Shown one piece after another: positions 1 through 16,822 of a DNA stretch of 64,000 bases; position 1 is the first letter of the stretch, and each line of letters opens with the position of its first letter. The notes below the pieces were generated by a model that saw nothing but the letters and a program-made list of their open reading frames with translations, ran no database searches and had not been told where the DNA came from. Location: the NCBI GenBank assembly GCA_965214705.1, contig OZ243972.1, positions 3,200,001 through 3,264,000 of the forward strand, read 5' to 3'. Made by a program: the position numbers and the translations under genes. Origin of the DNA: Alphaproteobacteria bacterium. Lineage in GTDB: Bacteria; Pseudomonadota; Alphaproteobacteria; UBA828.

Positions 1-1631
1 AGGTCTTCGGTGCGGGTAATCACACGGGCCGGACCGGTCACCTTGCCGGCGCACGCGGGCACGCCGCGCAGGACATCGCCGGCGGCGGCGGGATCGACCC
101 CGAGCCACTCCTCGATCGTCTTTTCGGTGATACCCCAGAGCATGATGGTGATGGGCTCGGTGACGACCTCCGGCGGGGTTCCCAGCGCCGGCGGCGGCGT
201 CCACTTGCAGAGCGAGTCCCGGATGCGCCGGCGCCGCTCGACGATGGGCCGCCAGTAGACCTCGCCGCGCGGCGGCGAGCCCGTCGCCCAGCCGATCAGC
301 AGGTCGTAGAGCGCGTCATAGACCTCGTGGCGATGCAGGTAGAAGAGGTCCTCGCGGTCGTCGAGGAAGCCGTGGGCGACGAAGACATCCGCAAGCTCCC
401 GCACCTTCGACCAGAAGATCGTGTGGTGCCAATGCTCGACGTAGAAGTTGTGGTCCTCGACGTAGGGAAAGACCTTGCAGGTGAGCGCGAGCAGGCCGTC
501 GAACGCCTCGCGGTCCTGATCGGTGGGCAGCAGGGCGCGGTATTCCGCCGTCACCCGCTGCCGCTCCGCCAGCAGCCGCTCGAGCGGACGGCGGATGTCC
601 TCGCCCCGCTGCAACGCCTCGACGTAGCCCCGCAGCGCGATGAAGGGCAGCCGCAGGTCGTCGATCCATACCGGATCCGAATGGTCGTAGCCGACGCCCG
701 TGGAGAAGTGGAACCACGGCTCCTTCGCCGCCTCGAAGGCCTCCAGCCATTCGGCTCCGCCCGGTGCCTTCGCCATGGCCGCCAGCAGCGCGTCGGGGTC
801 GTCGTGCTGCAGGACGATGCCGGCGAGGTTCCGCTCGACCGCCAGTTCGGCCAGCTCGCGCACCTTGTCGTCGGGCCGCAGCAGCAGGTTGTCGATGCCG
901 CAGACGATTTGCGTCAGCGTGCGATCGGTGATGCCGGGAAACGCCCGCTGACAGAATTCGCGGAAGGTCAGGTAGGCGCCGTAGCCCAGGTTCAGCATCT
1001 CGAAATGGTAGGAGCCCATCTCGAGCATGTTCTCGATCAGCCGGTTGTAGGCGCTGAGCAGGTCGTGCGAGGAGTAGACGCCGCGGTGGCCGAAGACGTT
1101 CTCCTCGGGCTCCAGCTCCGGCAGCGGGCGGAACTCGATCTCGGTCAGGCGCGCGATGCAGTCCTTCGCCTTCTTGGCCCAGTTGCCGTAGATCTCGTCC
1201 CAGTTCTCGAAGTAATGGCCGGCGCGGCAGGTGAAGTGCTCGTTGCGCGCGGCGATCTGGTCTGGGTCGGTGACGCTGTTGGGGCTGACGTAGATGTAGC
1301 CGTTGACCAGCCGCTGATCGATGCCCATGGCGACCGGAATGGGCCAGACCCGGCTCGCCATCTGGCTGGCCGCCACCCACCAGTTCTCGGTCATGATGGT
1401 GTCGAAGGGATAGAGCGGCTCCGGGTTGTGCATCCCATCGAAGAACCAGAACTTTCCCTCCTCCATCGCGCGGCGTTCGTCGCTGATCAGGCAGTAATAG
1501 GGATATAGCTCCTCCCAGCCCTCGGCGCCGTCGGGCGTGGGCAGTTCGAACGGGCTCGGGAAGCCCCGGTTGAGGGGCGGCGTCGCCGCGGCCTCCGGGC
1601 CTGTCCCGGCGCTCTCGGGTGTGTCACTCAT
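1..1631 (-). CDS. PEP-utilizing enzyme, phenylphosphate synthase alpha / CreH-like subunit (C-terminus runs off the window)
   Basis: Not in the ORF track because it has no stop in the window. Manual translation from ATG 1631: MSDTPES...FPSPFELPTPDGAEGWEELYPYY...FWFFDGMHNPEPLYPFD...VFPYVEDHNFYVEHW...LRGVPACAGKVTGPARVI, the last part entering the PEP-utilizer mobile domain. Confidence 0.8.
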   Translation of the reverse strand, partial: MSDTPESAGTGPEAAATPPLNRGFPSPFELPTPDGAEGWEELYPYYCLISDERRAMEEGKFWFFDGMHNPEPLYPFDTIMTENWWVAASQMASRVWPIPVAMGIDQRLVNGYIYVSPNSVTDPDQIAARNEHFTCRAGHYFENWDEIYGNWAKKAKDCIARLTEIEFRPLPELEPEENVFGHRGVYSSHDLLSAYNRLIENMLEMGSYHFEMLNLGYGAYLTFREFCQRAFPGITDRTLTQIVCGIDNLLLRPDDKVRELAELAVERNLAGIVLQHDDPDALLAAMAKAPGGAEWLEAFEAAKEPWFHFSTGVGYDHSDPVWIDDLRLPFIALRGYVEALQRGEDIRRPLERLLAERQRVTAEYRALLPTDQDREAFDGLLALTCKVFPYVEDHNFYVEHWHHTIFWSKVRELADVFVAHGFLDDREDLFYLHRHEVYDALYDLLIGWATGSPPRGEVYWRPIVERRRRIRDSLCKWTPPPALGTPPEVVTEPITIMLWGITEKTIEEWLGVDPAAAGDVLRGVPACAGKVTGPARVITRTED

Positions 1632-1722
1632 ACGTGGCACCTCGCGTCCTGCCGCCCGGCATCATGCCACGCGTGCGCCCAACGGTTCACGACCATAGGG
1701 CGAGGCGGATCGTGCGCCGGCG

Positions 1723-1893
1723 CTACTCGGCGGCGGCCGCGGCCTCCTGCGGCTCCCACTCGGGGATGCGGCCGTCGTAGTAGGGCATCTGCTCGACCCG
1801 CGGCGTCCACGAGCCGTTGTCGATGCAGGCGCGGACGTGGCGCGCGATCTCGTCCGGCCACGGCACCGGGTTCTCGATCAGCTTGAGCGTCAT
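1723..1893 (-). CDS. small hypothetical protein (56 aa)
   Basis: ATG 1893 preceded by GAGGAGGGAAG; MTLKLIENPVPWPDEIARHVRACIDNGSWTPRVEQMPYYDGRIPEWEPQEAAAAAE; same strand and just upstream of the PEP-utilizer gene. Confidence 0.55.
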   Translation of the reverse strand: MTLKLIENPVPWPDEIARHVRACIDNGSWTPRVEQMPYYDGRIPEWEPQEAAAAAE

Positions 1894-1986
1894 CGCTTCC
1901 CTCCTCGCGGCAACCGCCGCAGCGGACCTTACACGCGGCCAGGAACGAAGCCAAGAATACGAAATTCGTGAATTCACGGGCTTACA

Positions 1987-2083: not shown

Positions 2084-2737
2084 ATGAGCGCCTCGAAACC
2101 ATCCTCGCAGGCGAAGGGGAACAGCCGGGAGCCTCGGCTTCGCGCGCTGGCGGAGGGCGAGCCCGCGCCGGTCATGGGCCTGCGCCAGGTCGGGATGGCG
2201 GACCTGCAGGGCGATGCGGTCGCCCCTGCCTCGATCCCTCATATCGAAGGGCTTAACCGGGAGATCGTCGCCCTGCTGCAGGAGGACGGCCGGACGCCGT
2301 TCTCCAGCATTGCGCGCACGCTGGGCGTCTCGGAAGGGACCGTGCGCTCCCGTGTGGGCCAGATGCACAAGGCCAACCTGATCCACTTCATCACGGTGGT
2401 GAACCCGCTGGCGCTGGGCTACACGGCCTGGTCGATGCTCGGCATCAAGGTCGCCCGCGGCGCCAGCGCCCATGAGGTGGCGTCCCACTTCCGCGATCGG
2501 CCGGAGGTCGTCTATGTCATGCGCGTCGCCGCGCGCTTCGACCTGCTGGCTGAGGTGGTGTGCGGCTCGCCCGACGAGCTGCGCGAATTCCTCGATGACC
2601 ATTGCTACGGCTCGGACGACATCGCCCAGGTCGAGCCGATGATGGGGCTGGGCCTCTACAAGAGCCTGTTCAAGTGGGACAAGCCGCTCGGCGCCGGCGA
2701 TGGCCGCGGCAAGTCGGCCGGACGCAGCAGCCGGTAG
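2084..2737 (+). CDS. Lrp/AsnC family transcriptional regulator
   Basis: LLQEDGRTPFSSIARTLGVSEGTVRSRV HTH followed by a RAM-like domain; start codon uncertain. Confidence 0.9.
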   Translation: MSASKPSSQAKGNSREPRLRALAEGEPAPVMGLRQVGMADLQGDAVAPASIPHIEGLNREIVALLQEDGRTPFSSIARTLGVSEGTVRSRVGQMHKANLIHFITVVNPLALGYTAWSMLGIKVARGASAHEVASHFRDRPEVVYVMRVAARFDLLAEVVCGSPDELREFLDDHCYGSDDIAQVEPMMGLGLYKSLFKWDKPLGAGDGRGKSAGRSSR

Positions 2738-2774: not shown

Positions 2775-4010
2775 ATGAGCAAGCGCCGCATCATGCCTAC
2801 CGGACACTGGGACTGGAGCATGCCGGTCACGCTCTCCCAGGGCTGGCGGCTGGGCGATCTGGTCGTGGTCGGCGGCCAGATTTCGGCGGATGATAAGGGC
2901 CGCACGGTCGGCGGCGACATCGAGACCCAGACCCGCAACATCATGGAGTTCATCGGCCGGGTGTTGCGCGAGTCGGGCGCCGACTTCGGCGATGTGGTGA
3001 AGCAGAACGTCTACTACGTGGTCGATGACGAGAGCCCGCCGGCGGACGAGATCGTGCGGCGCATCGACGCGGTGCAGGCCGAGTATTTTGCGGCGCCGGG
3101 CCCAGTCACGACCGAGACGCCGGTCTCCGGCCTCGCCTACGAGGGGCTGCTGCTGGAGATCGACGCCTTCGCCGTGGTGGGTGCAAACAAGCGCCCGCTC
3201 ACGCCCGAGGGCCACTGGTCGCGTGGCAACGGCATCGCCTGCGTCCAGGGCTGGCAGGCGGGCGACTGGGTCTTCGTCGGCGGCCAGCGCTCGCTCAACG
3301 GAGACGGCTCGCTCAGGGATGCCGGCGACATCGCAGCCCAGACCCGCAATTGCTTCAACGGCATGGCGGGCGTCCTTGCCGAGGCCGGCGCCTCGATGAA
3401 CGACCTCTTGCGCCTCAACACCTACTACCGGCACGAGACCGCGGGCGCCGACGTGACCGCGTTCTGGGAGGCGCTGACTCGGGTGCGCATGGAGCACCTG
3501 CCGAACCCGGGGCCCGCCGGCACGGGGCTCAGGGTCAAGGATTTCTCTCATCCGGGCGAGCTGATTCAGATCGAGGGCGTTGCTCATCTCGGCCAGGAGC
3601 GCCGGCGCATCATGCCGGCAGGCCACTGGGACTGGAGCATGCCGGTACCCTTCTCCCAGGGCTGGCGGGTCGGCAACGTCGTCTTCGCGGGCGGTCAGAT
3701 CTCCGCCGACCGGAAGGGGCGGACGGTCGGCCCCGGCGACATCGCCCAGCAGACCGAGAACGTGTTCGAGAGCCTGATCGCGGTGCTGGGCGAGGCCGGC
3801 GCCGAGATGAGCGACGTGGTCAAGCTCAACACCTATTACCAGTACGACGACGGCAGCGCCTCGCCCACGGAGTACTGGGAGAAGATGACCGAAGTGCGGC
3901 GGCGCTACTTCCCGCCGCTCGGGCCGGCGGCGACGGCGGTCCGCGTGGACGGCTACGCCTTCGAGGACCTGCTGATCGAGATCGAGGCAATTGCCGTGGT
4001 GGGCGAGTGA
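2775..4010 (+). CDS. RidA/YjgF/UK114 family protein with three tandem domains
   Basis: Three repeats of the (S/V)QGW..G..V..GGQ ... EIEA pattern; GGAGA RBS before ATG 2775. Confidence 0.85.
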   Translation: MSKRRIMPTGHWDWSMPVTLSQGWRLGDLVVVGGQISADDKGRTVGGDIETQTRNIMEFIGRVLRESGADFGDVVKQNVYYVVDDESPPADEIVRRIDAVQAEYFAAPGPVTTETPVSGLAYEGLLLEIDAFAVVGANKRPLTPEGHWSRGNGIACVQGWQAGDWVFVGGQRSLNGDGSLRDAGDIAAQTRNCFNGMAGVLAEAGASMNDLLRLNTYYRHETAGADVTAFWEALTRVRMEHLPNPGPAGTGLRVKDFSHPGELIQIEGVAHLGQERRRIMPAGHWDWSMPVPFSQGWRVGNVVFAGGQISADRKGRTVGPGDIAQQTENVFESLIAVLGEAGAEMSDVVKLNTYYQYDDGSASPTEYWEKMTEVRRRYFPPLGPAATAVRVDGYAFEDLLIEIEAIAVVGE

Positions 4011-4059
4011 TGCTGTCAGGGTGCTTTTCTCACCACCGCCGGCCTCCGGGGTGACATGA

Positions 4060-4941
4060 ATGGCCCAGGGACAAGCCGGGGGCTCACCGCCGTCCGATGC
4101 GAATGCGCATCCGGGCGACACCGCTCCCGCGCCGGTCTTCAAGCCGCCCCGCCAGCCCTTCCTGGAGGTGCTCGGCTCGCTCACGCAACGGCGCACCGTG
4201 GTGCTGGGCGTCGCGGGCGTCATCATCTTCTTCGCCGTCTGGGAGGTCGCCCACTACGTCACGCCCGAGGAGAAGCAGCGCTTTCTGCCCGCCGTCGAGC
4301 AAGTGGTGGCCGAGATCGCCTTTCTCTTCGCCGAGAAGAACTTCATCGCCGATGTCGGTACCAGCCTCTACCGCATCTACGCCAGTTTCTTCGTCGCCAG
4401 CCTGATCGCCGTGCCGCTCGGCGTCTTCATGGGCTGCTTCGTCAAGGCACGCGCGCTGATCAGCCCCACCACGGGGGGCTGGCGCTATCTGCCGGCGGCC
4501 TCCTTCGCGCCGCTCCTGCTGGTGTGGTTCGGGCCCACCGACTTCGCCAAGATGGCGCTGCTCTTCCTCGGCTGCTTCTTCTTTCTCGTGGCGCTGATCC
4601 TCGACAACACGCTCGCGGTCCAGCGCGAGCTGATCGAATCCGGCCTCACCATGGGGGCCAAGCGGCGGCAGGTGGTGGGCATCACGTTCCGGGCCGCCGC
4701 ACCCGCCATCCTCGATTCCATGCGCAACATGATCGCGGTCGCCTGGACCTACCTGGTGATCGCCGAGATCATCGTGGCGACCGACGGCATCGGCGCGGTG
4801 ATGATGCGGGCCGCGCGCTTCCTCCACGTCGACATCATGATGGGCGGCATCCTCACCATCGGCGTGCTCGGCGTGCTGACCGACATCACGTTCCGCATCG
4901 CGAGCCGGCTGCTCTTCCCGTACCTGCGGGTCAGGCGCTAG
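4060..4941 (+). CDS. ABC transporter permease (NitT/TauT type)
   Basis: Multiple TM segments, EAA-like loop ELIESGLTMGA, AWTYLVIAE motif. Confidence 0.9.
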   Translation: MAQGQAGGSPPSDANAHPGDTAPAPVFKPPRQPFLEVLGSLTQRRTVVLGVAGVIIFFAVWEVAHYVTPEEKQRFLPAVEQVVAEIAFLFAEKNFIADVGTSLYRIYASFFVASLIAVPLGVFMGCFVKARALISPTTGGWRYLPAASFAPLLLVWFGPTDFAKMALLFLGCFFFLVALILDNTLAVQRELIESGLTMGAKRRQVVGITFRAAAPAILDSMRNMIAVAWTYLVIAEIIVATDGIGAVMMRAARFLHVDIMMGGILTIGVLGVLTDITFRIASRLLFPYLRVRR

Positions 4942-4952
4942 GAGGCGGCGGG

Positions 4953-5798
4953 ATGGCGGTCTTCGGCTTGGGGAGAACGGCGGCGGCGCAGGCGGGAGCG
5001 AATGCCCCGGTGCCGGGCACGCCCCCGTTGCGCGCCAACCGGGTCACCAAGAGCTATCTCAAGGGCAGCGTGATTGCTCTCGACGACGTTTCCTTCGACG
5101 TTCATGCCAACCAGGTCACGGCGATGATCGGCCCGTCGGGCTGCGGCAAGACGACGATGCTGCGGCTGATGGCGGGCCTCGAATACCCCTCGCGGGGCGA
5201 CGTGACCATGTTCGGCCAGCCGATCATGGGGCCGGGGCCGGAGCGCGGCATGGTGTTCCAGGCCTACACGTCTTTCCCGTGGCTCACGACGCGGGCCAAC
5301 ATCGAGTACGGGCTGAAGCTCCAGGGGCTTGCGAAGGCGGAGCGGCGCGAACGCGCCGAGCACTTCCTCGAGCTGGTTCATCTGGAGGGGTTCGCCAATG
5401 CCTATCCGGCCGAGCTATCCGGCGGCATGAAGCAGCGCGTCTCCATCGCGCGCACGCTGGCGCAGAACCCGGCGCTGCTGTTGCTGGATGAGCCCTTCGG
5501 CGCGCTCGACGCCCAGGTCACCTGGGAAATGGAGGAGATGATCATCGAGATCATCGAGCGTGAGAACAAGACGGTGGTGGTAGTGACCCACGACATCCAG
5601 GAGGCGATCTACCTCGCCGACAGGATCATCTTCTACACACGGCAGCCGGGGCGGATCAAAGCCGACCTCCCTATGGCGTTCAAGGAAGGCCGCCGCTTCC
5701 GCAAGAAGGAGGAGATGCTCGTGCATCCGGGCTATGTGGACATGGAGCGGCGGCTCTACGCGATGATGCGCGAGGAAATCCGGGGGCGGGTCAGCTAG
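4953..5798 (+). CDS. ABC transporter ATP-binding protein (NitT/TauT type)
   Basis: GPSGCGKT, LSGGMKQR, LLLDEPFGALD, VTHD; GGAGG RBS before ATG 4953. Confidence 0.92.
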   Translation: MAVFGLGRTAAAQAGANAPVPGTPPLRANRVTKSYLKGSVIALDDVSFDVHANQVTAMIGPSGCGKTTMLRLMAGLEYPSRGDVTMFGQPIMGPGPERGMVFQAYTSFPWLTTRANIEYGLKLQGLAKAERRERAEHFLELVHLEGFANAYPAELSGGMKQRVSIARTLAQNPALLLLDEPFGALDAQVTWEMEEMIIEIIERENKTVVVVTHDIQEAIYLADRIIFYTRQPGRIKADLPMAFKEGRRFRKKEEMLVHPGYVDMERRLYAMMREEIRGRVS

Positions 5799-5841: not shown

Positions 5842-6882
5842 ATGCTGTGGCGAACATCCATCATAACACTGGCGGCCTGCGCGCTCGCGTTCGGCGTCGT
5901 CAGTGCCGCGAGCGCGAAGGACACCGTCCGGGTCGCGCACTTCAGCTGGCCGGGCTACGGCTTCCTCCATATCGCCAAGGCGAAGGGCATGCTGCCCGAG
6001 AACATGGACCTCGAAATCTCGATCATCGAGGACCCGGTGCAGAGCATGGGCCTGCTCGCGAGCGGCCAGCTCGACGTCGTGACCAGCACCATCGAGTTCG
6101 GCCCGATCGCGCTAGCCGAGGACATGCCGGTGAAGCTGCTCGGCCTCACCAATCTCGGCAACGGCTCGGACCGCATCATCGTGGGGCCCGACATCAAGGA
6201 GCCGGGGGATCTCAGGGGCAAGAAGGTCGGTGTCATCGAAGGCGGGCTTTCGCAGATCTACATGGCGATCTGGCTGGAGCAGCAGGGCATCAAGTGGGAC
6301 GAGGTGGAGATGGTGAACCTCTTCCCGGATGCCGCCGCAGCCGCGATGATCGCGGGTCAGCTCGACGCCGCCGAGCTCTGGGACCCCTACGGCCCGCAGG
6401 TGCTGGAAGAGCTCGCGGGCTCGCGCGAGATGAGCCATTCCGGCGAGGAATACTGGCTCAAGGAAGGCCTGATCGCCGACGCGATCTTCGTCTCCGACGC
6501 GTTCATTGCGGAAAACCGCGACCTGCTGGTGGCGCTGATCAAGTCCCGCTACGAGGCGGTCGAGTGGTGGCGTCAGAACCCCACCGAGGGCAATGAAATG
6601 ATCGCCGGGATCCTGCAGTGGGGCGTGCCGGACGTGGAGCCCATCCTCGGTGGCGTGAACAACCCCGACGACGGTACCCTCTACATGTATAGTCTGGAGG
6701 AATCGGCGCAATTCTGCGGCGTTGCCGAGGGCGAGCCGCCCTTCGGCCAGCGCAACGGCCAGCTCGCCGACCATTGGGAGCTCACCAACAAGTGGTGGTT
6801 GACCTTTGGCCTGATGACCGAGACGGTCGCTCCGGCGGAGGGGATCGATTGCTCGATCCTCAAGGACGCGCTCGGCGGGTAA
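5842..6882 (+). CDS. ABC transporter substrate-binding protein (NitT/TauT/SsuA type)
   Basis: Signal peptide, WPGYG motif, DLRGKKVG, W(D/E)P. Confidence 0.88.
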   Translation: MLWRTSIITLAACALAFGVVSAASAKDTVRVAHFSWPGYGFLHIAKAKGMLPENMDLEISIIEDPVQSMGLLASGQLDVVTSTIEFGPIALAEDMPVKLLGLTNLGNGSDRIIVGPDIKEPGDLRGKKVGVIEGGLSQIYMAIWLEQQGIKWDEVEMVNLFPDAAAAAMIAGQLDAAELWDPYGPQVLEELAGSREMSHSGEEYWLKEGLIADAIFVSDAFIAENRDLLVALIKSRYEAVEWWRQNPTEGNEMIAGILQWGVPDVEPILGGVNNPDDGTLYMYSLEESAQFCGVAEGEPPFGQRNGQLADHWELTNKWWLTFGLMTETVAPAEGIDCSILKDALGG

Positions 6883-6951: not shown

Positions 6952-8472
6952 ATGGCGCTGCTTGAGATGCACGAATGGTACGACCTCGCGCGGGATACCA
7001 ACTGGACTCCCGGCTACGTCGCCGAGGAGGAGATCTTTCCGCCCGAACTCAGCGATCCCTACGGGATTTCGGTCGAGCAGTGGGAGACCTTCGACGAGCC
7101 CTACAAGGTCTGCTACCGGGACTATGTCGAGACCCAGCGCGACAAGGACATCGGCGCCTATTCGGTGAAGTCGGCGCTGGCGCGCGCGGACTTCTTCAAG
7201 AAGGCCACACCGCACTGGAAGGCGCTGCTCGCGCTGCACTTCAGCCCGATCGGCTTCGCCGAATTCCACTCGGCGTCCGCCTTCGCGCGGATGACCCGGT
7301 TCAGCCGGGCGCCGGGTATGCGCAACATGGCGACCTTCGGCACGCTGGACGAAATGCGTCACGGCCAGATCCAGATGTATTTCGCCTACGAGTTCATCAA
7401 GCAGGACCGCGTCTTCGATTGGGCGCACAAGTCGTCCAAGACCGAGAACTGGATCATCATCAGCCTGCGTCATGCGCTGGACGACATCGAGCACACGCGC
7501 GATGCGATCAGCGCCGCGATCATGACCAACTTCGCCTTCGAGCAGGGCTTCACCAACCTGCAGTTCATCGGCCTCTCGGCGGACGCCGCCAAGGCCGGCG
7601 ATCACACCTTCGCCACCATGCTGCAGAGTATCCAGACCGACGAGGCGCGCCATGCGCAGATCGGCACGCCGCTCATCAGCATCATGATCGAGAACGGGCG
7701 CAAGGCGGAGGCGCAGCAGCTGGTCGATATCGGCTTCTGGCGCATCTGGAAGCAGTTCTCGGCGCTCAGCGGCATCTCCATGGACTACTACACGCCGCTG
7801 GAGTTCCGCGAGCACTCGCTCAAGGAGTTCATGCACGAGTGGGTGGTCGATCAATTCGCCCGCAACATGAAGGCGATCGGCCTCGACCTGCCCTGGTACT
7901 GGGACTACTTCCTCCACGATATCGAGACCTTCCACCATTGCCAGCAGATCGGCATCTACGTCTACCGCGCGACGCAGTGGTGGCGGCCCATCGCCTGCGT
8001 CTCGCCGGCCGAGCGCGACTGGCTGGAGGAGAAGTATCCGGGCTGGAACGACACCTACGGCAAGTGCTGGGACGTGGTGATCGACAATATCCGAGGCGGC
8101 CGCTTCGAGAAGACGGTGCCCGAGGTGCCGCCGCTGATCTGCAACATGTGCGGGCTGGAGGTGACCGGGATTGCGGGCGTCGGGCGCCAGGTGAACGGCC
8201 GCACATGGAACGCGACGAACTTCCACCTCGATCACGAAGGCCGGCGCTATCACTTCTGCTCCGAGCCCTGCAAGTGGGTCTTCGAGCTGGAGCCCGCCCG
8301 CTACCAGGGACACCGCAGCATCATAGACCGGTTGCTGGACGGCACCGTGCCGCCCGGCCCCGACGGCTTCTATGAGTACATGGGCCAAAGCTTCGAGGAA
8401 CGCGGCGTCTGCGGCTACGACTATCAGTGGGTCGACGGCTACGACGTGCCGCGCGCCGCGGCGGCGGAGTAG
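6952..8472 (+). CDS. soluble di-iron monooxygenase hydroxylase alpha subunit (TmoA/IsoA/XamoA-like) with C-terminal YHS region
   Basis: WYDLARDTNWTP N-terminus; iron ligands AEF, DEMRH, FEQGFTN, DEARH; WLEEKYPGW; YHFCSEPC. Confidence 0.93.
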   Translation: MALLEMHEWYDLARDTNWTPGYVAEEEIFPPELSDPYGISVEQWETFDEPYKVCYRDYVETQRDKDIGAYSVKSALARADFFKKATPHWKALLALHFSPIGFAEFHSASAFARMTRFSRAPGMRNMATFGTLDEMRHGQIQMYFAYEFIKQDRVFDWAHKSSKTENWIIISLRHALDDIEHTRDAISAAIMTNFAFEQGFTNLQFIGLSADAAKAGDHTFATMLQSIQTDEARHAQIGTPLISIMIENGRKAEAQQLVDIGFWRIWKQFSALSGISMDYYTPLEFREHSLKEFMHEWVVDQFARNMKAIGLDLPWYWDYFLHDIETFHHCQQIGIYVYRATQWWRPIACVSPAERDWLEEKYPGWNDTYGKCWDVVIDNIRGGRFEKTVPEVPPLICNMCGLEVTGIAGVGRQVNGRTWNATNFHLDHEGRRYHFCSEPCKWVFELEPARYQGHRSIIDRLLDGTVPPGPDGFYEYMGQSFEERGVCGYDYQWVDGYDVPRAAAAE

Positions 8473-8481: not shown

Positions 8482-8742
8482 ATGGCCGACATCCCGCTCG
8501 CCGTGCTGCTCGAAGGCGACTACGGCTACAAGGTGCAGGTCTTCGACACCGGCGACACCATGGCGGTGCTGGCGGAGAAGGTCGCCGACCAGGTCGCGGG
8601 CGTCCTGGTGGCGTCGTTCCCGCCCGAGGCCGTCCTCAAGGTCCGCGTGCAGGGCAGCGCAGACCCGTTGCCCGACGAGCTGACCATCGCCGACGCCGGC
8701 TTCGTCGAGATGGAATCCGTGGAAATCTACCGCGCCGGCTGA
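8482..8742 (+). CDS. monooxygenase gamma subunit (TmoB-like)
   Basis: 86 aa, PL...EGD.....V.DTGDTM...A, directly after the alpha subunit. Confidence 0.8.
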   Translation: MADIPLAVLLEGDYGYKVQVFDTGDTMAVLAEKVADQVAGVLVASFPPEAVLKVRVQGSADPLPDELTIADAGFVEMESVEIYRAG

Positions 8743-8773: not shown

Positions 8774-9067
8774 ATGACGACGGCAGACGACGCCGGCAAT
8801 CTCGTGGGCCCGGTGATGCGCGCGGGCGACATCGCCGATGCGGTGCTCGAAGCGATCCAGGAGGACAACGAGGGGCGCGAGGTCATCACCGAGGAACACG
8901 CGTCCTACATCCGGATCAAGGTCGCGGACGAGTGCTTCGTGCGCTTCGAGACGGTGGGCGACGTGCTGGGCCGCACGGTCACCCGCGGCGACATCGAGGC
9001 GAACATGCCGAGCTTCGCAGGGTTCATTCGCACCGAACCGGACGGCATCCGGTTCGTCGCGCGCTAG
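8774..9067 (+). CDS. monooxygenase effector/coupling protein (TmoD/MmoB family)
   Basis: NLVGPVMRAGDIADAV..AI.EDN, YIRI, LGR, NMPSFAG. Confidence 0.9.
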   Translation: MTTADDAGNLVGPVMRAGDIADAVLEAIQEDNEGREVITEEHASYIRIKVADECFVRFETVGDVLGRTVTRGDIEANMPSFAGFIRTEPDGIRFVAR

Positions 9068-9078: not shown

Positions 9079-10068
9079 GTGGCGGTCGAAGTCAAAGGCA
9101 TGAAGACGTGGAGCGGCCTCGCCGAGAAGCGGCGGCGGCCCAGCGAGTACGAAGTCGTCACTACCAATCTGCAGACCCGCACGCGGCACCCGGATCAGGC
9201 CTACGAGCTTTCGCCGGCGCCGGACCTGGGGATGAACGAATTCTACAAGCAGAACGTCTCGGAGAGCCCGTTCCAGCACCCGGACTGGGAGGGATATCGC
9301 GACCCCGACGAGATGATCTACCGCGTCTACACGCGAATTCAGGACCAGCAGGAGCAGTACGTCGACGGTCTGCTCGACGAGCACAACGAGATCGGCCACG
9401 ACGCGACGCTCAGTGACGCCTGGCTCGACGCGCTGGAGCGACTCTACACGCCCCGACGCTTCCTGCAGATGGCGCTGCAGATGGGCGCGGCCTATCTGGT
9501 GCAGATTGCGCCCGCGAGCACGATTACGGCCTGCGCCGGGTTTCAGGACGGCGACGAGTTTCGCTGGCTTTCCCGCTGCGCCTACCGGGCGCGCGAGCTG
9601 CAGCGCGCGCATCCTTCGCGCGGCTTCGGCCAGACCGAGCGCCGCACCTGGGAGGAGGAGCCCGCCTGGCAGGGCTTCCGCGAGTTGCTGGAGAGGACGC
9701 TCTCCACCTACGACTGGGGCGAGCACTTCGTGGCGCTCAACCTGGTGGCGAAACCGGCGGCGGACGAGGCGCATCGCCAGCTCGGCCGCGTCGGGCGGCG
9801 CTTCGACGACGGTCTGCTCGGGCTGCTAGCCGACAACCAGATGCGGGACAGCGAGCGTTCGCGGCGCTGGAGCGCGGCGCTCGTCGCCTTCTCGCTGGAG
9901 AACGAGGCGAACGCCGCCGTCCTCAGCGGCTGGATCGAGAAGTGGATGCCACTCGCGCGCCAGGCGGTCGATACCTATTGCGGCGCGCTGCCGGAGCAGG
10001 ACGACGCAGCGGACGCCACTCTCGCGGCAGTCGAGGCCTTCCACCGGAGCCTCGGTCTCGACGCTTAG
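9079..10068 (+). CDS. monooxygenase hydroxylase beta subunit (TmoE-like)
   Basis: KTWSGLAEKRRRPSEYEVVTTNL, W..YRDPD, WQGFREL.E..L..YDWGE; GTG start after AGGGAG. Confidence 0.9.
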   Translation: MAVEVKGMKTWSGLAEKRRRPSEYEVVTTNLQTRTRHPDQAYELSPAPDLGMNEFYKQNVSESPFQHPDWEGYRDPDEMIYRVYTRIQDQQEQYVDGLLDEHNEIGHDATLSDAWLDALERLYTPRRFLQMALQMGAAYLVQIAPASTITACAGFQDGDEFRWLSRCAYRARELQRAHPSRGFGQTERRTWEEEPAWQGFRELLERTLSTYDWGEHFVALNLVAKPAADEAHRQLGRVGRRFDDGLLGLLADNQMRDSERSRRWSAALVAFSLENEANAAVLSGWIEKWMPLARQAVDTYCGALPEQDDAADATLAAVEAFHRSLGLDA

Positions 10069-10253: not shown

Positions 10254-10943
10254 TCACCACGGGATGATCGTGCGCTCGGGCGCGTGCCAGAAGGCGGGCT
10301 GAGCGCCGGGCTCGGCAGGCTCGACCTGATCGATGCGCTCGATCAGGGCGGCGGCGGCGTCCTCCGGCGGGCGTGCTTCCTGGCGTTCGTCGTCGAAGGT
10401 CATGGCGGTCGCGACCATGCCGGGGTGCAGGACCACCGCGGCGATGCCGCGCTTCCCAAGATCGTGGGCGAGGTTGACCGCCACCATATTGGCCGCGCAC
10501 TTGGAGACGCGATAGCCGTAGAGCCCGCCCGAGCGGTTGTCGCCGAGCGAGCCGATGCGGCTGGTGATGAAGGCGACCGTCGACCCCGGCTTCAGCCGAC
10601 CCAGCAGGGCCTCCGTCACACGGAGCGGACCCAGCGTGTTGACCTCGAACTGCCGGCGGATGGCGTCGTAGTCGAGCGCGCCCAACTCGTCGCGCGCGGC
10701 AATCCCGGCGTTGTTGATGAGCAGATCGAGCGTCGTGCTGGAGTCCGCGAGCCGCTCGGCAAGGCCTTGCACCGCATCGTCGGAGGTCACGTCCACGCCG
10801 GGCTCGACCCTGATGCCGAGCGCCCGCAGCTCGTCGGAATCGCCCAGACAGGCCGCGATGACGGCGTCGCCGCGTGCGTGACAGGCGCGGCAGAGCGCGT
10901 TGCCGATGCCGCGATCGGCGCCCGTGACCAGAACGGTGCTCAC
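10254..10943 (-). CDS. short-chain dehydrogenase/reductase (CsgA-like)
   Basis: TGADRGIG, NNAG, YRVSK catalytic motif, LHPGMV. Confidence 0.9.
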   Translation of the reverse strand: MSTVLVTGADRGIGNALCRACHARGDAVIAACLGDSDELRALGIRVEPGVDVTSDDAVQGLAERLADSSTTLDLLINNAGIAARDELGALDYDAIRRQFEVNTLGPLRVTEALLGRLKPGSTVAFITSRIGSLGDNRSGGLYGYRVSKCAANMVAVNLAHDLGKRGIAAVVLHPGMVATAMTFDDERQEARPPEDAAAALIERIDQVEPAEPGAQPAFWHAPERTIIPW

Positions 10944-10973: not shown

Positions 10974-12989
10974 TCAGGCGACCCGGAGCGTCGGCTGCTC
11001 ATTGCGCGCCTGCCCCGGCACCTCCCAGTGGGCCGCGGTGCGGCGGCGCAGCATGTCGCGGAACTGCCGGGTGGTGTTGGGTAGAAGCTCGCCCGTGCCC
11101 CAGTCCACGATCACGCCGTACTGGCGAATCAGGTCGAGCGCGTCGAGCTCCTTGCTGCGGTACTTGGCTGCGATGTCCTCCGCATCCACGTCGAGCCAGG
11201 CGTGGCGCTGGGTGCGGATGCGCTCGCGCTCAGCCGCGGTCGCTGCTTCATCCACCTCGTATTCGGCGAGGTCGGCATCGATCTCGCGGACCACGACGCC
11301 ATAGTCCTTCTTCGCCCGCTCGATGGAGACGTAGCCGTCGGCCACGTCCTCGCACACCGTTGCGGGATCGCGCGTGAGGGGGTCGCCGAGCCCGCCGCCG
11401 CCGGCCGACGGCCGGGTCACGGTGTCGCCGGCCTCCACCGGCACGCCCGAGAAGATCGAGCCCAGGTAGCGTTCGCCCTGCGTGCCGGGATTGACCCAGA
11501 CCCCGTGCGGAATCGACGGCAGCCCGCCCCAGAGCCCCCAGGTCACCGAGCGCTCGCGGTCGCAGCAGTAAGAGACCACCGAGCGCTCCGCCTTGGTGAG
11601 GATCGCGCCCTTCTCGACGCCGAGGCCGCCGCGCGAGTTGCCGGGCCCGCCGGAATCGACGATGAGCTCGTGGCCGGTGGTCAGCACCGGGGCGAGCCGC
11701 TCCTGCCCCTCGAAGGGCTGGGTGCCGAGCTGGACGCCGAAGACCGGCCCGGTGGCGCCCCAGCCGTCGCGGCCGTTGCGCGCGCCCCAGCCGCCCACCA
11801 TCCAGTCGTACCACATGAAGTAGGGGCGGTCCTCCTTGCGGCCGTCGCGCCCGCCGATCAGCAGGTACTCGAGGTTGAAGGTGCAGGCCATGGCGCGCTC
11901 GGGCAGGATTTCGGCCCAGAGCTCGAACACCGAGTTCATGATCTTCTCGAACGGGCCCGAGCAGAAGCCCGCGACAGGCGTCGGCCAGTCCGCGTTGACC
12001 ACGGTGCCCTTGGGTCCGAGATCGACCGTGACCACCCGGTAGAAGCCGGAGTTCAGCGGGATGTCGGGCGATTGCATCTTGGTGCCGGCGACGATGGCCG
12101 CGAAGGCGCCGCCGTAGCAGCAGTTGAGGAAGGTCGAGATCGTCTTCGGGTGCGAGCCGGAGAGATCGTAGTGCACGCTGTCGCCGTCGATGGTCATCTT
12201 GATGCGGATCGGGATCAGCCCCTCGCCGGCGACCGGGTCCACGTCGATGTAGTCCTCGGTCTCCCACACGCCGTCGGGCAGCCTGGCGATGCGCTGGCGA
12301 GTCAGCGTCTCCACGTAATCCTGCACCTCGGCGAAGGAGGTCTGGATCACGTCGACGCCGTACTTGTCGCAGAGCCGGCCGACCTCCCGCTCCGCGACGT
12401 TGCAGGCCTCGGCCTGGGCCTGGAGGTCGCCGATGATGTCGGCGGGCGCGCGGGTGTTGTTGGCGATCAGCTCCGCCACGTCCGAGAGGTACTCGCCCTT
12501 GCTGTAGACCCGTACCGGCGTGATGCGGAGCCCCTCGGCCATGTGGTCGAGCGCGCTCACGTTGAACGAGCCCGGCACCGCGCCGCCGACATCGGCCCAG
12601 TGCCCGTTGGCCTGGGAGAAGCCGAGGTGGATGCCCTTGTAGAAAATGGGGCGGACGATGCGCGTGTCGTTGAAGTGGGTGCCGCCCTGGTAGACGTCGT
12701 TCACGACGAAGGTATCGCCGGGGTGGATGTCGTCGCCGAACTTGTTGATGACGGCCTGGGCGGTGTAGTGCAGCGTGCCCACGTGGGCGGCGATGTCGCC
12801 CGAGCCCTGCATGATGGTGTTGCCTTCGGTGTCGCAGATCGCCGAGGAAAAATCCCGCGACCAGATCACGAAGGAGTAGCAGGTGCGGAAAATCTGCTCC
12901 GCCATCTGGTCGACGATGTTGACGTAGGCGTTCTTGAGCACCTCGAAGGTCACGGGGTCGAGCGTGTAGCCTTCTCCGTTCTTGCTCAT
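10974..12989 (-). CDS. hydantoinase B / oxoprolinase family subunit
   Basis: LDPVTFEV, RDFSSAI, HVGTL, GTHFND, GHWADVGG, GGGGLGDP. Confidence 0.92.
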   Translation of the reverse strand: MSKNGEGYTLDPVTFEVLKNAYVNIVDQMAEQIFRTCYSFVIWSRDFSSAICDTEGNTIMQGSGDIAAHVGTLHYTAQAVINKFGDDIHPGDTFVVNDVYQGGTHFNDTRIVRPIFYKGIHLGFSQANGHWADVGGAVPGSFNVSALDHMAEGLRITPVRVYSKGEYLSDVAELIANNTRAPADIIGDLQAQAEACNVAEREVGRLCDKYGVDVIQTSFAEVQDYVETLTRQRIARLPDGVWETEDYIDVDPVAGEGLIPIRIKMTIDGDSVHYDLSGSHPKTISTFLNCCYGGAFAAIVAGTKMQSPDIPLNSGFYRVVTVDLGPKGTVVNADWPTPVAGFCSGPFEKIMNSVFELWAEILPERAMACTFNLEYLLIGGRDGRKEDRPYFMWYDWMVGGWGARNGRDGWGATGPVFGVQLGTQPFEGQERLAPVLTTGHELIVDSGGPGNSRGGLGVEKGAILTKAERSVVSYCCDRERSVTWGLWGGLPSIPHGVWVNPGTQGERYLGSIFSGVPVEAGDTVTRPSAGGGGLGDPLTRDPATVCEDVADGYVSIERAKKDYGVVVREIDADLAEYEVDEAATAAERERIRTQRHAWLDVDAEDIAAKYRSKELDALDLIRQYGVIVDWGTGELLPNTTRQFRDMLRRRTAAHWEVPGQARNEQPTLRVA

Positions 12990-13011: not shown

Positions 13012-15066
13012 TCAGCCTTCGGCCTGCGGAATGTGCATGACGATGGTGTGCCAGGGGTCGACCTCGGCCTTGAGGCCGGGCGGCACCAGCACCGTGGAAT
13101 CGAGCTGCTCGATGATCGCCGGCCCTTCGACCACCGCGCCGGCGTGCAGGGCGTCGCGGTCGTAGATGGGCGTCATGATCGCGTCAGGCGCCTCGTCGAA
13201 GACCACCGGCCGCTCGGTCTCGGGCGCCGGCGCCGAGCGGTCCATCTCTTCCCTCGCGAACTCCGCCTTCTGCGAAAGCCCGGTGGCGGTGACCGTGAGG
13301 CGGTAGATCTCGACCGGCGCATCGGGCCTGGAATAGTTGTGCTCGCGGCCGTGCTCCTCGTGGAACTGGGCGATCGCCGCATCCAGCGAGCCGGCAGTCG
13401 CGTCCACCTTGATCGACATGGAGCGCCACTGGCCGAGGTAGCGCATGTCGACGAAGCGCTCGAACTGCATGCGGTCCTCGGTCACGCCCTCGTGTAGGAG
13501 CCGCTCGCGGCCCTCGTCCTCCAGCGTGCTGAAGGTCTGCTCGACCTCCTCGATCTTCGCATCGTCGGTAGAGCGCAGATACATCTGCGACATGTCGTGC
13601 TTGATATCCACCAGCAGGCAGCCGAGCGCGGAGGTGACGCCGGGGTTCGGCGGTACCAGCACGGTCGGGATCGAAAGGTCGCGGGCGAGCGCCACGCCAT
13701 GCAGCGGCCCGGCGCCGCCGAACACTGTCAGCGCGAAGTCGCGCGGGTCGTAGCCCCGCCGGATCGAGACCAGGCGCACGGCGTCCGCCATGTTGGCGTT
13801 GGCCACCTGGAGTATGGAGACAGCCGCCTCCTGCACCGTGAGCCCGAGCGGGTCGGCGATGCGGCGCTTGATCGCCTCTTCGGCGAGCGAGCGGTCCAGG
13901 GTGACGGCGCCGCCCGCGAGCCTGTCGCTGATGCGGCCGAGGACGATGTTGGCGTCGGAGTTGGTGGGCTCCACGCCGCCCCGGCCGTAGCAGGCGGGAC
14001 CGGGCGACGAGCCTGCCGACTGCGGGCCGTTGCGGAGCGAGTTGGCCTCGTCGATCCAGGCGAGCGAGCCGCCGCCCGCGCCGATGGTCAGCACCTCGAT
14101 GCTAGGGAAGCAGATCGGGTAGCCGTACTGCACGTACCAGTCGGTGGTGACCCGCAGGTTGCCCCGGTCGCAGAGCGAGACGTCGGTGCTGGTGCCGCCC
14201 ATGTCCAGGCTGATCGAGTTCTCGTAGCCAGCGAGCTGGGCGACGAAGCGGCTCGCGATGGCGCCCGCCGCGATGCCAGAAGCGGCGAGCCGGGCCGCGA
14301 ACTTGGACGCCGTGCTCTCGGTCATCACGCCGCCACCGGAGTGCAGCAGCAGAATGTCCTCTTCGTAGCCGCCTTCGCGGAGCCGCGTGGCGAGGCGCCC
14401 CACGTAGTCGCCGGCGACCGGCGCGAGCACGGCGTTGGCCACCGTCGTCGAGAAGCGCTCGTGCTCGAAGATCTCGGGCATGATCTCGCTGGAGAGCGAG
14501 ATGGAGGCGCCGGGGACTTCCTCTTCGAGGATGTCGCGCATGCGGCGCTCGTTCTCGGGATTGGCGAAGGCGTTGGCGAAGCAGACGGCGATGGTCGTCA
14601 CGCCGCGCTTGTTGATGATGCGGGCGGCCTCCCGCGCCTCCGCCTCGTTCACCGGCTCGATGACCGCGCCGCTGTAGTCGATGCGCTCGCTGACCACCAG
14701 GCGGTTGCGGCGCTGGATGTAGGGCGGCGCCATCTCCTTATAGGTGTCCCACAGGTCGTCGCGGGTGCCTCGGCGGATCTCGATCACGTCGCGGAAGCCC
14801 TTGGTGGTGACCATGATCGCGGGCGGGAAGTTGCGCGTGATCAGCGCGTTGGTGGCGAGCGTGGTGCCGTGAGCGAAGAGCACCATGTCCTGGAGGTCCA
14901 CCCCGCCGGCCCTGATGCCCTCCAGCACGCCGTCGATGGGGTCGGGCGTCGTCGGGGTCTTGGCGACGCGCATCTGGCCGGACGCTTCGTCTAGGACGCA
15001 CACGTCGGTGAAGGTGCCGCCGACATCACACGCGACGCGAACGGCCGCCCTCGACACGTCATTCAT
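13012..15066 (-). CDS. hydantoinase A / oxoprolinase family ATP-binding subunit
   Basis: DVGGTFTD, HGTTLATNA, DMGGTSTD, IGAGGGS, GPQSAGSSPGPACYG, FGGAGPLH. Confidence 0.93.
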   Translation of the reverse strand: MNDVSRAAVRVACDVGGTFTDVCVLDEASGQMRVAKTPTTPDPIDGVLEGIRAGGVDLQDMVLFAHGTTLATNALITRNFPPAIMVTTKGFRDVIEIRRGTRDDLWDTYKEMAPPYIQRRNRLVVSERIDYSGAVIEPVNEAEAREAARIINKRGVTTIAVCFANAFANPENERRMRDILEEEVPGASISLSSEIMPEIFEHERFSTTVANAVLAPVAGDYVGRLATRLREGGYEEDILLLHSGGGVMTESTASKFAARLAASGIAAGAIASRFVAQLAGYENSISLDMGGTSTDVSLCDRGNLRVTTDWYVQYGYPICFPSIEVLTIGAGGGSLAWIDEANSLRNGPQSAGSSPGPACYGRGGVEPTNSDANIVLGRISDRLAGGAVTLDRSLAEEAIKRRIADPLGLTVQEAAVSILQVANANMADAVRLVSIRRGYDPRDFALTVFGGAGPLHGVALARDLSIPTVLVPPNPGVTSALGCLLVDIKHDMSQMYLRSTDDAKIEEVEQTFSTLEDEGRERLLHEGVTEDRMQFERFVDMRYLGQWRSMSIKVDATAGSLDAAIAQFHEEHGREHNYSRPDAPVEIYRLTVTATGLSQKAEFAREEMDRSAPAPETERPVVFDEAPDAIMTPIYDRDALHAGAVVEGPAIIEQLDSTVLVPPGLKAEVDPWHTIVMHIPQAEG

Positions 15067-15172: not shown

Positions 15173-16051
15173 CTAACACTTGAGGATGGGGCGGGCGTTC
15201 TTGCCGGCGATGGCGGGGCGGAGCGCGCCCCACGCGTTGAACAGAGCCTCGTGAGCCTGCCAGGTTTCGTGGCTCAGGATGCGGACGATCACCAGGTTGC
15301 CGATGCGGGTGACGCCGGCCTCGGTGCCGTCCACGCCTTCGATCGCCTCGTGCACGTCGTCCTCGACATCCGGCGGCAGATCAGGCGCGTAGCCGAACGC
15401 CATTGCCATGTGCAGCCGGCCGAGCCAGAGCCGCTGCAGCGCGGCGATAGTCTCGGGCGTGGTCGCCACCAGGCGGTCGAGAGCGACCAGGCGGCCGCCG
15501 ATGACGATGCGGAACTCCGAGACCAGATGGTGGAAGCGAAAGACCTCGCCGTCGCCGTAGTGCACGCGGCCGGCCGAGACCATGTCGGTGGCGAAGAGCC
15601 GGGACGAGGGCTCCAGCGCGATCCGGTTGATCCGGTGCACCCGGCTGCGGGCGAAGGGGATCGCCTCGTCCGGGCAGAACTCCAGCAGCGCATTCTCGCC
15701 CACGTGGAGGTCCACGATCTCGCGCGAAATGGCGCCGCCGGGGCACTTGTAGAACTTGCTCGACGCGGTGGTGGTGAAGAGGGCGCGGGTGCCGGGCTCC
15801 AGCACGCCGTGGAAGTGCGAGACGTCGCCCTCGACGAAGCCGCCGCCGCTGTTCACCAGCAGCATGAACGGCTGGTCGTCGTGGTCCTGGTAGTGGTAGC
15901 CCTGCCACTGGAAGGGAATGCGCCAGCAGAGCGGGTCGATTTCCGTGCGCCCGAGCCTGCTCGACGCGCGGACGTTCATCAGCGCGTACTTACCGACGAT
16001 CCATTCGGGATCAGGCTGTACCGGCGCGCTGCTCGGCTCCGTCATGCCCAT
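15173..16051 (-). CDS. ureD: urease accessory protein UreD
   Basis: [37 protein letters not shown]; position in the ure operon. Confidence 0.85.
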
Positions 16052-16655
16052 CCATCAGGAGAACGTCGCGCTCGATCCAGGCGATCACCTCGGCAAGGCC
16101 ATCGCCGGCGCGCAGGTTGGTGAAGAGGAAAGGCCGCGTGCCCCGCATCTTCCTGGAATCGCGCTCCATCACGCCGAGGTCGGCGCCTACCATCGGCGCG
16201 AGGTCGATCTTGTTGATGACCAGCAGCGGCGACTTGGTTATGCCGGGTCCGCCCTTGCGCGGGATCTTGTCGCCCTCGGCCACGTCGATCACGTAGATGT
16301 AGCTGTCCACCAGCTCGGGGCTGAAGGTCGCCGCGAGATTGTCGCCGCCGCTCTCGACGAAGACGATGTCGAGGTCGGGATGCAGCGCCGCCATCTCCTC
16401 GATGGCGTGGGCGTTCATCGAGACATCCTCGCGGATCGCCGTGTGCGGGCAGCCGCCGGTCTCGACCCCGGCCACGCGCTCGGGCGCGATGGCGCCCGAC
16501 TTGATGACGAACTCGGCGTCTTCTTTGGTGTAGATGTCGTTGGTGATGGCGGCCAGCGAATGGTTCGGCCCCATGCTGCGGCAGAGCGACACCAGCAGCG
16601 CCGTCTTGCCCGACCCCACCGGCCCGCCGATGCCGATCCTGACCGGCTTGCGCAT
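16011..16655 (-). CDS. ureG: urease accessory GTPase UreG
   Basis: [33 protein letters not shown]. Confidence 0.95.
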
Positions 16656-16730
16656 CCACAAGTCTCCCCGTTTTCCTGCGTCTAACGTCGCGTTTCCGAA
16701 ACGAAAGAGTAGAGTGCTCCCGTCCCCGTC

Positions 16731-16822
16731 TCGTCATGGCCGGGCTTGACCCGGCCATCCACTCGCGCATCCCGGTCTTGCTTGGACCGACTGGATGCCC
16801 GGATCAAGTCCGGGCATGACGA
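16731..16822. repeat. alphaproteobacterial intergenic palindromic repeat pair inside the ure operon
   Basis: TCGTCATGGCCGGGCTTGACCCGGCCATCCA and its inverted near-copy TGGATGCCCGGATCAAGTCCGGGCATGACGA. Confidence 0.75.

Follow-up and report, generated by a model that had tools for sequence, protein, structure and literature searches.

We analyzed a 64,000-nucleotide stretch of contig OZ243972.1 (positions 3,200,001 to 3,264,000 of assembly GCA_965214705.1, hereafter the window) from a sponge-associated alphaproteobacterium with a 7.9-Mb genome. The gene cluster of interest encodes a soluble diiron monooxygenase (SDIMO) of the toluene/alkene type and is preceded on the same strand by genes for a regulator, a protein of three fused Rid domains (Rid3), an ABC importer and a periplasmic binding protein. 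Judging from the encoded proteins and their relatives, the window codes for the hydroxylase (alpha, beta and TmoB-like gamma subunits) and effector of a distinct, widespread and uncharacterized clade of this SDIMO type. The genes of this region are as follows.

1628..1954, minus strand: remnant of a PF01522 (NodB/PuuE-like) hydrolase gene, with about 755 bp lost in frame from its middle
2084..2737, plus strand: Lrp/AsnC-family regulator (PF13404, 46 bits; PF01037, 38 bits); start codon uncertain
2775..4010, plus strand: Rid3, 411 aa, three fused Rid (YjgF/RidA) domains (three PF01042 stretches, 169 bits); reading frame open from 2700
4056..5798, plus strand: NitT/TauT-type ABC importer, permease and ATPase fused in a 580-aa open reading frame (PF00005 at residues 342-481)
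5842..6882, plus strand: periplasmic binding protein of the NMT1/SsuA type, with signal peptide (PF09084, 61 bits)
6952..8472, plus strand: SDIMO hydroxylase alpha subunit, 506 aa (PF02332, 236.8 bits; YHS domain PF04945, 38.2 bits)
8482..8742, plus strand: TmoB-like gamma subunit (PF06234, 63 bits)
8774..9067, plus strand: MmoB/DmpM-type effector (PF02406, 74.5 bits)
9079..10068, plus strand: hydroxylase beta subunit (PF02332, 198.6 bits on the open reading frame 8932-10068)

The likely start of the beta subunit, as read from the sequence, is GTG at 9079 behind GGGAG. The fused importer matched taurine and nitrate ATPase models with 209-223 bits, under their cut-offs, and its N-terminal half is the counterpart of the permease found in relatives (locus L036). 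The binding protein, whose N-terminus reads as a signal peptide, scored 98 bits on the SsuA_fam model (cut-off 163).

The alpha subunit and its active site

In a phmmer search of the PDB, the alpha subunit was closest to TouA of toluene/o-xylene monooxygenase (ToMO; 1t0q_A, 627 bits, E 2e-187) and TmoA of toluene 4-monooxygenase (T4MO; 3dhg_A, 599 bits), followed at a distance by phenol hydroxylase (125 bits) and MmoX (69 bits). Because the alignment with TouA is ungapped to residue ~406, residues of the window protein carry TouA/TmoA numbers. The six iron ligands (E104, E134, H137, E197, E231 and H234), which form two E...EXXH motifs and do not vary in any of the 198 aligned alpha subunits, are all retained, and so are T201, N202, Q228, F196, F205 and I100. 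A preliminary description of this gene, made from the sequence alone, had listed the ligands, T201, N202, Q228, F196 and F205 as conserved, and the TouA alignment bears this out. T201, N202 and Q228 make up an outer-sphere triad that, according to the accessible text of PMC4200526, serves the ferredoxin and effector complexes. By its PF02332 fold, iron ligands, nearest relatives and triad, the protein is a toluene/alkene-type SDIMO alpha subunit, of the four-component group (TMO) that is group 1 in the scheme of Holmes and Coleman and group 2 in that of Leahy/Notomista. The window shares with ToMO (TouA-F) and T4MO (TmoA-F) the family, the fold, the ligands and triad, a TmoB-like gamma subunit, an MmoB-type effector and a beta subunit.

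At the positions taken to form the hydrophobic pocket of toluene monooxygenases proper, the window protein departs from these enzymes: I100, F196 and F205 are kept, and S107, L176, E180 and T192 are found at other positions. Relative to TouA, the window protein has A103 for E, S107 for A, L176 for F, E180 for M and T192 for L, and further changes give H106, F111, H181 and N193. The first five of these window residues, and the motifs in which they lie (HFSPIGFAEFHS, RHALDDIEH and IMTNF), are as the preliminary description quoted them; it had compared with TmoA, whose residues at 103 and 180 we take to be G and I, and the alignments examined here are all with TouA variants. In comparison with both ToMO and T4MO, the window has S107, F111, L176, E180, H181, T192, N193, L224 and Q225 where these enzymes have A, E/Q, F, M/I, M, L, T/S, I and S/T, respectively. 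The alkene monooxygenase alpha subunit XamoA of Xanthobacter Py2, which belongs with XamoA-F and IsoA-F to the same six-gene family, is 40% identical to the window protein (39.4% by tblastn) and has A107, F176, M180 and L181; it shares T192 with the window.

The C-terminus of the alpha subunit contains a Cys4 motif (C397, C400, C436 and C440; CxxC ... CxxxC) in the YHS domain, a putative metal site that we presume to resemble the zinc site of phenol hydroxylase. The preliminary description had noted this motif correctly, but it is no mark of a subgroup. It is present in 37-45 of 45 clade locus rows and in 29-39 of 39 rows outside the clade defined below, and it is absent from TouA, XamoA and the toluene monooxygenase of Paraburkholderia BN5. 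The distribution points to a feature ancestral to most of the family.

A monophyletic clade with conserved gene order

The 198 aligned alpha subunits comprised the window protein, 83 from fetched loci and 114 from a protein search. We defined the clade as the 96 sequences at least 58.5% identical to the window protein, a set that coincides with the clade in the trees; the other 102 are referred to as outside. The SDIMO alpha-subunit tree that the preliminary description had proposed placed the window protein in a 51-row clade with support 100 (FastTree, 104 rows), and the clade had an SH-aLRT of 100 in a quick IQ-TREE run (43 rows). The window clade is monophyletic. It spans Alpha-, Beta- and Gammaproteobacteria, with open-ocean and sponge-associated Alpha- and Gammaproteobacteria among its hosts; these include Rhodospirillales, Hyphomicrobium, Zavarzinia, Pusillimonas, Burkholderiales, Steroidobacteraceae, Arenicellales and Poriferihabitaceae, with Zavarzinia aquatilis (HR-AS), Pusillimonas caeni (KCTC 42353) and Rhodospirillaceae N.6G among the cultured members. 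The clusters of these three strains each include Rieske, reductase, Rid3 and PF01522 genes. Since many of the 198 rows are near-copies, the following residue counts are descriptive and do not represent independent events.

S107: clade 95/96, outside 5/102
F111: clade 96/96, outside 3/102
H181: clade 95/96, outside 8/102
L224: clade 96/96, outside 6/102
Q225: clade 93/96, outside 13/102
N193: clade 92/96, outside 23/102
E180: clade 62/96, outside 6/102
T192: clade 58/96, outside 15/102
L176: clade 56/96, outside 17/102
A103: clade 55/96, outside 12/102

The best markers of the clade are S107, F111, H181, L224 and Q225, most of which the preliminary description does not name; N193 marks it as well, whereas E180, T192 and L176 mark only parts of it. 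A nested subgroup, made up of Arenicellales, Poriferihabitaceae and part of the Rhodospirillales, instead shows W102, A, V or C at 180, L192 and L196. Of the residues that the preliminary description had presented as distinctive, S107 is so, E180 and L176 characterize part of the clade, and A103 and T192 are not distinctive. Its proposal of a new SDIMO subgroup gains support, as the clade is monophyletic and has its own signature and its own synteny; the substrate that it suggested, an N-heterocycle or amine, is a matter of interpretation and is considered below.

Gene order was compared by seeded tblastn in 47 clade loci (the window and 46 others) and in 32 loci of other toluene-monooxygenase-type alpha subunits. 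These counts replaced a single-linkage clustering of all open reading frames, which was too noisy in the GC-rich loci.

Rid3: clade 42/47, outside 0/32
PF01522 hydrolase: clade 38/47, outside 0/32
Lrp regulator: clade 32/47, outside 0/32
Binding protein: clade 29/47, outside 0/32
ABC ATPase: clade 26/47, outside 0/32
M20 ArgE/DapE-type deacylase: clade 10/47, outside 0/32
COG0523 CobW-type GTPase: clade 6/47, outside 3/32

The misses of Rid3 in L003, L012, L026 and L049 concern contigs of 3-8 kb or loci cut at the relevant side, and the only real miss is L015. This gene order is stronger evidence than the pocket residues. The ABC importer, Lrp regulator and Rid protein are neighbors as the preliminary description had claimed, although the Rid protein in fact consists of three fused domains. 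In Pusillimonas, an NCS1 permease lies directly upstream and replaces the ABC system. Neither the window nor the annotated relatives showed a ring-cleavage dioxygenase gene or a catechol or other aromatic lower-pathway gene. The window thereby differs from ToMO and T4MO in the lack of an aromatic lower pathway and in the linked importer, Rid3 and hydrolase genes.

Rid3 is ~411 aa long in most clade loci, and the basal loci L030 and L058 have a single Rid domain instead, which fits a covalently fused trimer. RidA/YjgF imine deaminases are homotrimers, whereas Rid3 has three PF01042 domains in one chain and is presumably a pseudo-trimer; such a single-chain triple Rid protein would be a new architecture. 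In a self-alignment of the three domains, made without a reference RidA, an Arg occupies the place that we take to correspond to Arg105 of RidA in domains 2 and 3, and a Pro is found there in domain 1; in contrast to RidA, only two Rid3 domains appear to carry this residue. Domain 3 matched PH0854 with 57 bits and YabJ with 48 bits. The PF01522 protein scored 75-77 bits to PuuE allantoinases, and its best solved relative was 3rxz (206 bits).

The Rid3-PF01522 pair also occurs apart from SDIMO genes, in 10 of 12 loci found with the second copy of the pair in the genome of the window (C3:1460609-1462690; L088 10609-12690). In these SDIMO-free modules (L090-L101), the pair is flanked by two PF01979 amidohydrolase genes and an Opp-type ABC importer, and two of the loci (L100 and L101) contain two copies of the module each.

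Several loci of the clade contain genes whose products may release nitrogen. A tandem pair of arginase-family genes with HypA/HypB adjoins 9 of the 47 loci (L036 13699-17364, L024 15848-18538, L019 2-4370 and others), in marine or sponge Gammaproteobacteria and one Rhodospirillales metagenome-assembled genome. In the PDB search, metformin hydrolase subunit B matched one subunit of the pair with 482 bits (E 6e-144), whereas guanidine hydrolase reached 140 bits. An assignment of the pair to guanidine hydrolase GdmH was dropped on this account, the metformin/dimethylguanidine hydrolases being closer. According to the accessible text of PMC11399263, such tandem pairs are widely distributed nickel-dependent N,N-dimethylguanidine hydrolases (DmgH, with MefH as a related nickel ureohydrolase) that yield dimethylamine and urea, DmgH clusters with urease, and the natural origin of N,N-dimethylguanidine is unexplained. 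By their similarity scores, the pairs found here are likely enzymes of the dimethylguanidine hydrolase type. The window operon, like DmgH, lies near urease genes, and urease was also found within the loci L011, L016, L019 (directly upstream of alpha) and L028. Other neighbors include Amt (L015), an amidase (L058), a GS-III-like gene (L019) and flavin amine oxidases (L022 and L033). The genome of the window has no DmgH-like pair, the best match being 25-27% identical. Its only creatininase-family match (C1:3677390-3679132; L102; 206 bits) lies just before an arginase-family gene, and the two may be fused, as the frame is open over 780 aa.

Two sister clades share the polar pocket. One of them, the L078 group (L078 100-9856; L104 1-9889; L103 and L106), has E180-H181-T192-N193. 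A formate-tetrahydrofolate ligase gene immediately precedes alpha in 4 of 5 loci of this group, and a set of GS-III, GATase, GXGXG and GltB-FMN genes adjoins in 2 loci; we take this set to have the domain make-up of gmaS-mgsABC of methylamine use, and its scores stayed under the NCBIfam cut-offs. In the other sister locus, L070, a DmgH-like pair is found directly upstream.

Proposed reaction and alternative explanations

Together, these data led us to propose, with a probability of roughly 0.6, that the clade enzyme hydroxylates a C-H bond adjacent to the nitrogen of a small and polar nitrogen compound that the cell imports. This water-soluble organic molecule would be taken up by the NitT/TauT-type ABC system (or by the NCS1 permease in one relative), with transcription presumably under the Lrp-type regulator. 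The diiron center may then hydroxylate the carbon beside the nitrogen, either in the N-methyl or N-alkyl substituent of an amine, a guanidine or a ureide, or in the ring of a small N-heterocycle, in a pocket that appears to have gained the polar side chains S107, E180/H181, T192/N193 and Q225. Rid proteins hydrolyze imines, and the strict linkage of Rid3 and the PF01522 hydrolase to the clade SDIMO suggests that both resolve the hemiaminal or imine formed, with the M20 hydrolase perhaps also acting at this stage. Nitrogen might finally leave as urea and ammonia, handled by the adjacent urease, and in some genomes the dimethylguanidine-hydrolase-like nickel enzymes would take part.

Within this proposal, the oxidative removal of N-methyl or N-alkyl groups from methylated amines or guanidines is a tentative option. 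It is less probable that a hydantoin-, creatinine- or pyrimidine-like ring is C-hydroxylated, after which a PuuE-like enzyme could open the ring, and there is a slight chance that some other nitrogen compound is the substrate. More speculatively, and with doubtful standing, the clade might provide the oxygenase still missing from the turnover of methylated guanidines and methylamine in seawater and sponges, or the one for cyclic guanidines of the creatinine type. In that case, a toluene-monooxygenase scaffold would have been re-used as an N-demethylase/N-dealkylase or a ring C5-hydroxylase, and Rid3 would act as a single-chain, pseudo-trimeric hemiaminal/imine lyase; the PF01522 enzyme would finish the reaction, urea would pass to urease and C1 units to folate. 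If so, this could account for the point at which N,N-dimethylguanidine, an orphan substrate acted on by DmgH, is fed into metabolism or lost from it. The clade also gives a testable connection to what dimethylguanidine hydrolases do in nature, a role so far unexplained.

A precedent for the proposed logic is found in MgdH, a dioxygenase that forms a surprisingly stable N-(hydroxymethyl)guanidine, which is split by the helper protein MgdL (PMC12508155, accessible text). In both cases a C-H bond beside a guanidine nitrogen would be hydroxylated and a helper would split a stable hemiaminal; however, MgdH is a 2-oxoglutarate/Fe(II) dioxygenase whereas the clade enzyme is a diiron protein, and the same text does not place MgdL in the Rid family. 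We found no description of the clade or of the Rid3-PF01522 partnership in the main texts (supplements aside) of the literature searched. A 2025 review treats the TMO subgroups A and B as uncharacterized and suggests aromatic hydrocarbons as their substrates (PMC11825192, accessible text). SDIMOs are usually annotated and counted as hydrocarbon degraders. If the clade oxidizes dissolved organic nitrogen, counts of "toluene monooxygenase" markers in marine and symbiont metagenomes would be misread, a new oxygenase route would be added to the marine nitrogen cycle, and C-H hydroxylation beside nitrogen in small polar molecules would be a new chemistry for biocatalysis.

Several observations weigh against this proposal. 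The positions that we take to line the pocket (I100, A107, F176, I/M180, L192, F196 and F205) come from the ToMO/T4MO literature rather than from a structural model. The pocket is not uniform within the clade, because positions 180, 192 and 176 vary among its members: 192 is L in 37 of 96 and 176 is F in 40 of 96, and the very subgroup that carries the DmgH-like genes has A, V or C instead of E180. An aromatic substrate might also fit, since I100, F196 and F205 are kept and F111 is gained. The preliminary description had asked whether its residues are common in characterized toluene/alkene enzymes, and this is true of T192, found in the characterized alkene monooxygenase XamoA, and of A103, found in the BN5 toluene monooxygenase that adjoins a meta-cleavage pathway; S107 occurs in 5 of 102 outside sequences. 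The DmgH-like pairs and urease (9 and 5 of 47 loci, respectively) are minority neighbors in genomes rich in nitrogen-scavenging islands. The best solved relatives of the binding protein are weak matches (TauA 6ssy with 42 bits, SsuA and ThiY 3ix1), and in the relative L002 the ABC and binding-protein genes have been lost. Two Rfam scans for riboswitches were negative: an E-value scan of window 1-22000 gave only two chance-level matches, and a scan of seven relatives' loci at gathering thresholds gave none, with no guanidine, purine, TPP or NMT1-motif RNA. As to the window itself, its operon departs from the six-gene type, as it comprises alpha, TmoB, MmoB and beta and has neither a Rieske nor a reductase gene, and the best TmoF-like reductase match in the genome is 33% identical. 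Its PF01522 remnant retains only residues 22-35 and 288-323 of a 330-aa protein.

Two other substrate classes have to be considered. An aromatic N-heterocycle of the pyridine, pyrazine, pyrimidine or imidazole type could be hydroxylated or N-oxidized, with Rid3, PF01522 and M20 proteins acting later, on aminomuconate-like enamines or on formyl or carbamoyl amides. Diiron enzymes of the superfamily with polar N-heteroaromatic substrates are published (2-hydroxypyridine 5-monooxygenase HpdABCDE and the N-oxide-forming PmlABCDEF, covering 2-hydroxypyridine, pyridines, pyrazines and pyrimidines; PMC8313251, accessible text). Such a substrate would agree with the retained F196 and F205 and the gained F111, with the pyrimidine binder ThiY among the NMT1-type binding proteins, with the NCS1 family, which in Pfam carries cytosine, uracil, thiamine and allantoin, and with a Rid-family 2-aminomuconate deaminase (6izh) among the PDB matches. 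Yet the lower-pathway genes that it calls for are those missing from the window and its annotated relatives, and the enzymes that are linked are ureohydrolases, urease and C1 or methylamine-type genes; we know of no Rid3 or PF01522 partner of HpdABCDE or PmlABCDEF. We therefore consider an aromatic N-heterocycle unlikely. That the clade enzyme is an ordinary monooxygenase acting on toluene, benzene, phenol or alkenes, with the importer, Rid and hydrolase genes unrelated to it, we regard as quite improbable. The score to TouA, ~56% identity to the BN5 alpha subunit, the full catalytic apparatus, the occurrence of several of the named substitutions in classical enzymes and the view of the 2025 review that aromatic hydrocarbons are plausible for subgroups A and B are all in line with such an enzyme. 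It would, however, leave unexplained a clade-specific synteny over three proteobacterial classes in which Rid3 and PF01522 are never seen outside the clade; a hydrocarbon needs no binding-protein-dependent importer, genes of a catechol or epoxide lower pathway are not found close by (whereas a full meta-cleavage pathway adjoins the BN5 locus), and the same genomes hold a second, more canonical SDIMO.

It could also be argued that the window cluster is a decaying, non-working remnant in this genome, as suggested by the missing Rieske and reductase genes, the internal deletion in the PF01522 gene and the importer loss in L002. The PF01522 deletion is defined by window 1-1855 matching L001 2258-4139 and window 1851-2156 matching L001 4894-5198 (blastn/tblastn); it is common to the window and L014 (two assemblies), and the gene is intact in L017, L038 and L001. 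Against decay, every reading frame is intact, a second Rid3-PF01522 module and a TmoC-like Rieske gene are present elsewhere in the genome, and 17 of 17 loci of the window lineage keep the hydroxylase without a Rieske gene. The dN/dS values of alpha were 0.05-0.08 versus L038, L005, L008 and L009 (0.17 versus L013) and those of beta 0.07-0.16 versus the same four loci; versus L038, alpha, TmoB, MmoB and beta all had 0.05-0.10, at dS 0.10-0.27. The hydroxylase is under strong purifying selection. The stretch was found in sponge metagenomes, and two sponge metatranscriptome libraries contained contigs of 90-99% relatives over the binding protein, alpha, Rid3, ABC and beta genes (one contig of 1481 bases spans 7126-8597), although these are contigs in RNA libraries, in which DNA carry-over is possible, and not proof of transcription. 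Given the low dN/dS and these contigs, the window hydroxylase genes appear to be functional, and we consider decay highly improbable.

Electron supply and further genes

In the toluene/alkene-type SDIMO operon, the order is alpha, gamma (TmoB), Rieske ferredoxin, effector, beta and reductase (PMC11825192, accessible text), and the XamoA operon is complete in this sense, unlike that of the window. In the window, the MmoB/DmpM effector follows directly after TmoB and so leaves no space for a Rieske ferredoxin gene, a feature that distinguishes it, together with the lack of a reductase gene, from ToMO and T4MO and that had escaped the preliminary description. None of the 17 loci of the window lineage has a Rieske gene between TmoB and MmoB, versus 22 of 30 other clade loci; 9 of these 30 have a reductase gene, and all six genes were seen in L036. 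As the operon has neither gene, electrons would have to come from elsewhere in the genome. The only TmoC-like Rieske gene there belongs to a paralogous SDIMO cluster on contig C3, and this ferredoxin, with an unlinked reductase, is the likely electron source. In a Hyphomicrobium locus (L018 17645-18931), a glutathione-reductase-type ferredoxin reductase (Pyr_redox_2 and Reductase_C) stands in the place of the TmoF-type reductase, so electron donors have evidently been swapped within the clade.

The second SDIMO of the genome is more canonical, its alpha subunit carrying M180, M181 and A107, and it is split between two sites. Alpha, TmoB, Rieske and MmoB lie at C3:1535877-1538815 (L083), behind an IS110 transposase gene, and beta lies alone at C1:2677584-2678660 (L084), near thiolase, enoyl-CoA hydratase and acyl-CoA dehydrogenase genes. 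Neither site has a reductase gene, and the same split occurs in close relatives.

Downstream of the operon, the window contains the following genes, of which the SDR, Hyu and urease genes were assigned by Pfam.

10254..10943, minus strand: short-chain dehydrogenase/reductase (SDR), convergent with the operon
10974..12989, minus strand: HyuB, of an ATP-dependent hydantoinase/oxoprolinase-type pair with HyuA
13012..15066, minus strand: HyuA, of the same pair
15173..20299, minus strand: urease accessory and structural genes UreD, UreF, UreE and UreC
21891-26747: urea-type ABC transporter, beyond the urease genes

The SDR scored 278 bits on the NCBIfam IsoH model of isoprene degradation (cut-off 350) and is conserved in most window-lineage loci, with 84-92% identity (70-73% in L008-L010). 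On the caprolactamase models (cut-off 1000), the Hyu pair reached 336 and 533 bits. More than 60 paralogous HyuA/HyuB pairs were detected by tblastn across the contigs of the genome, a striking expansion, which makes the adjacency weak evidence and a link of HyuAB to the monooxygenase doubtful. A route from propane through 2-propanol and acetone to acetoacetate, by way of the SDIMO, the SDR and a hydantoinase-like carboxylase, was rejected: no gamma subunit was found for the carboxylase, the Hyu proteins are far under the carboxylase and caprolactamase cut-offs, and the pairs are so numerous. Farther along the window, at 40663-42581 on the plus strand, a DruA-like/DDE_Tnp_1-associated open reading frame overlaps a DDE transposase open reading frame, a mobile-element remnant.

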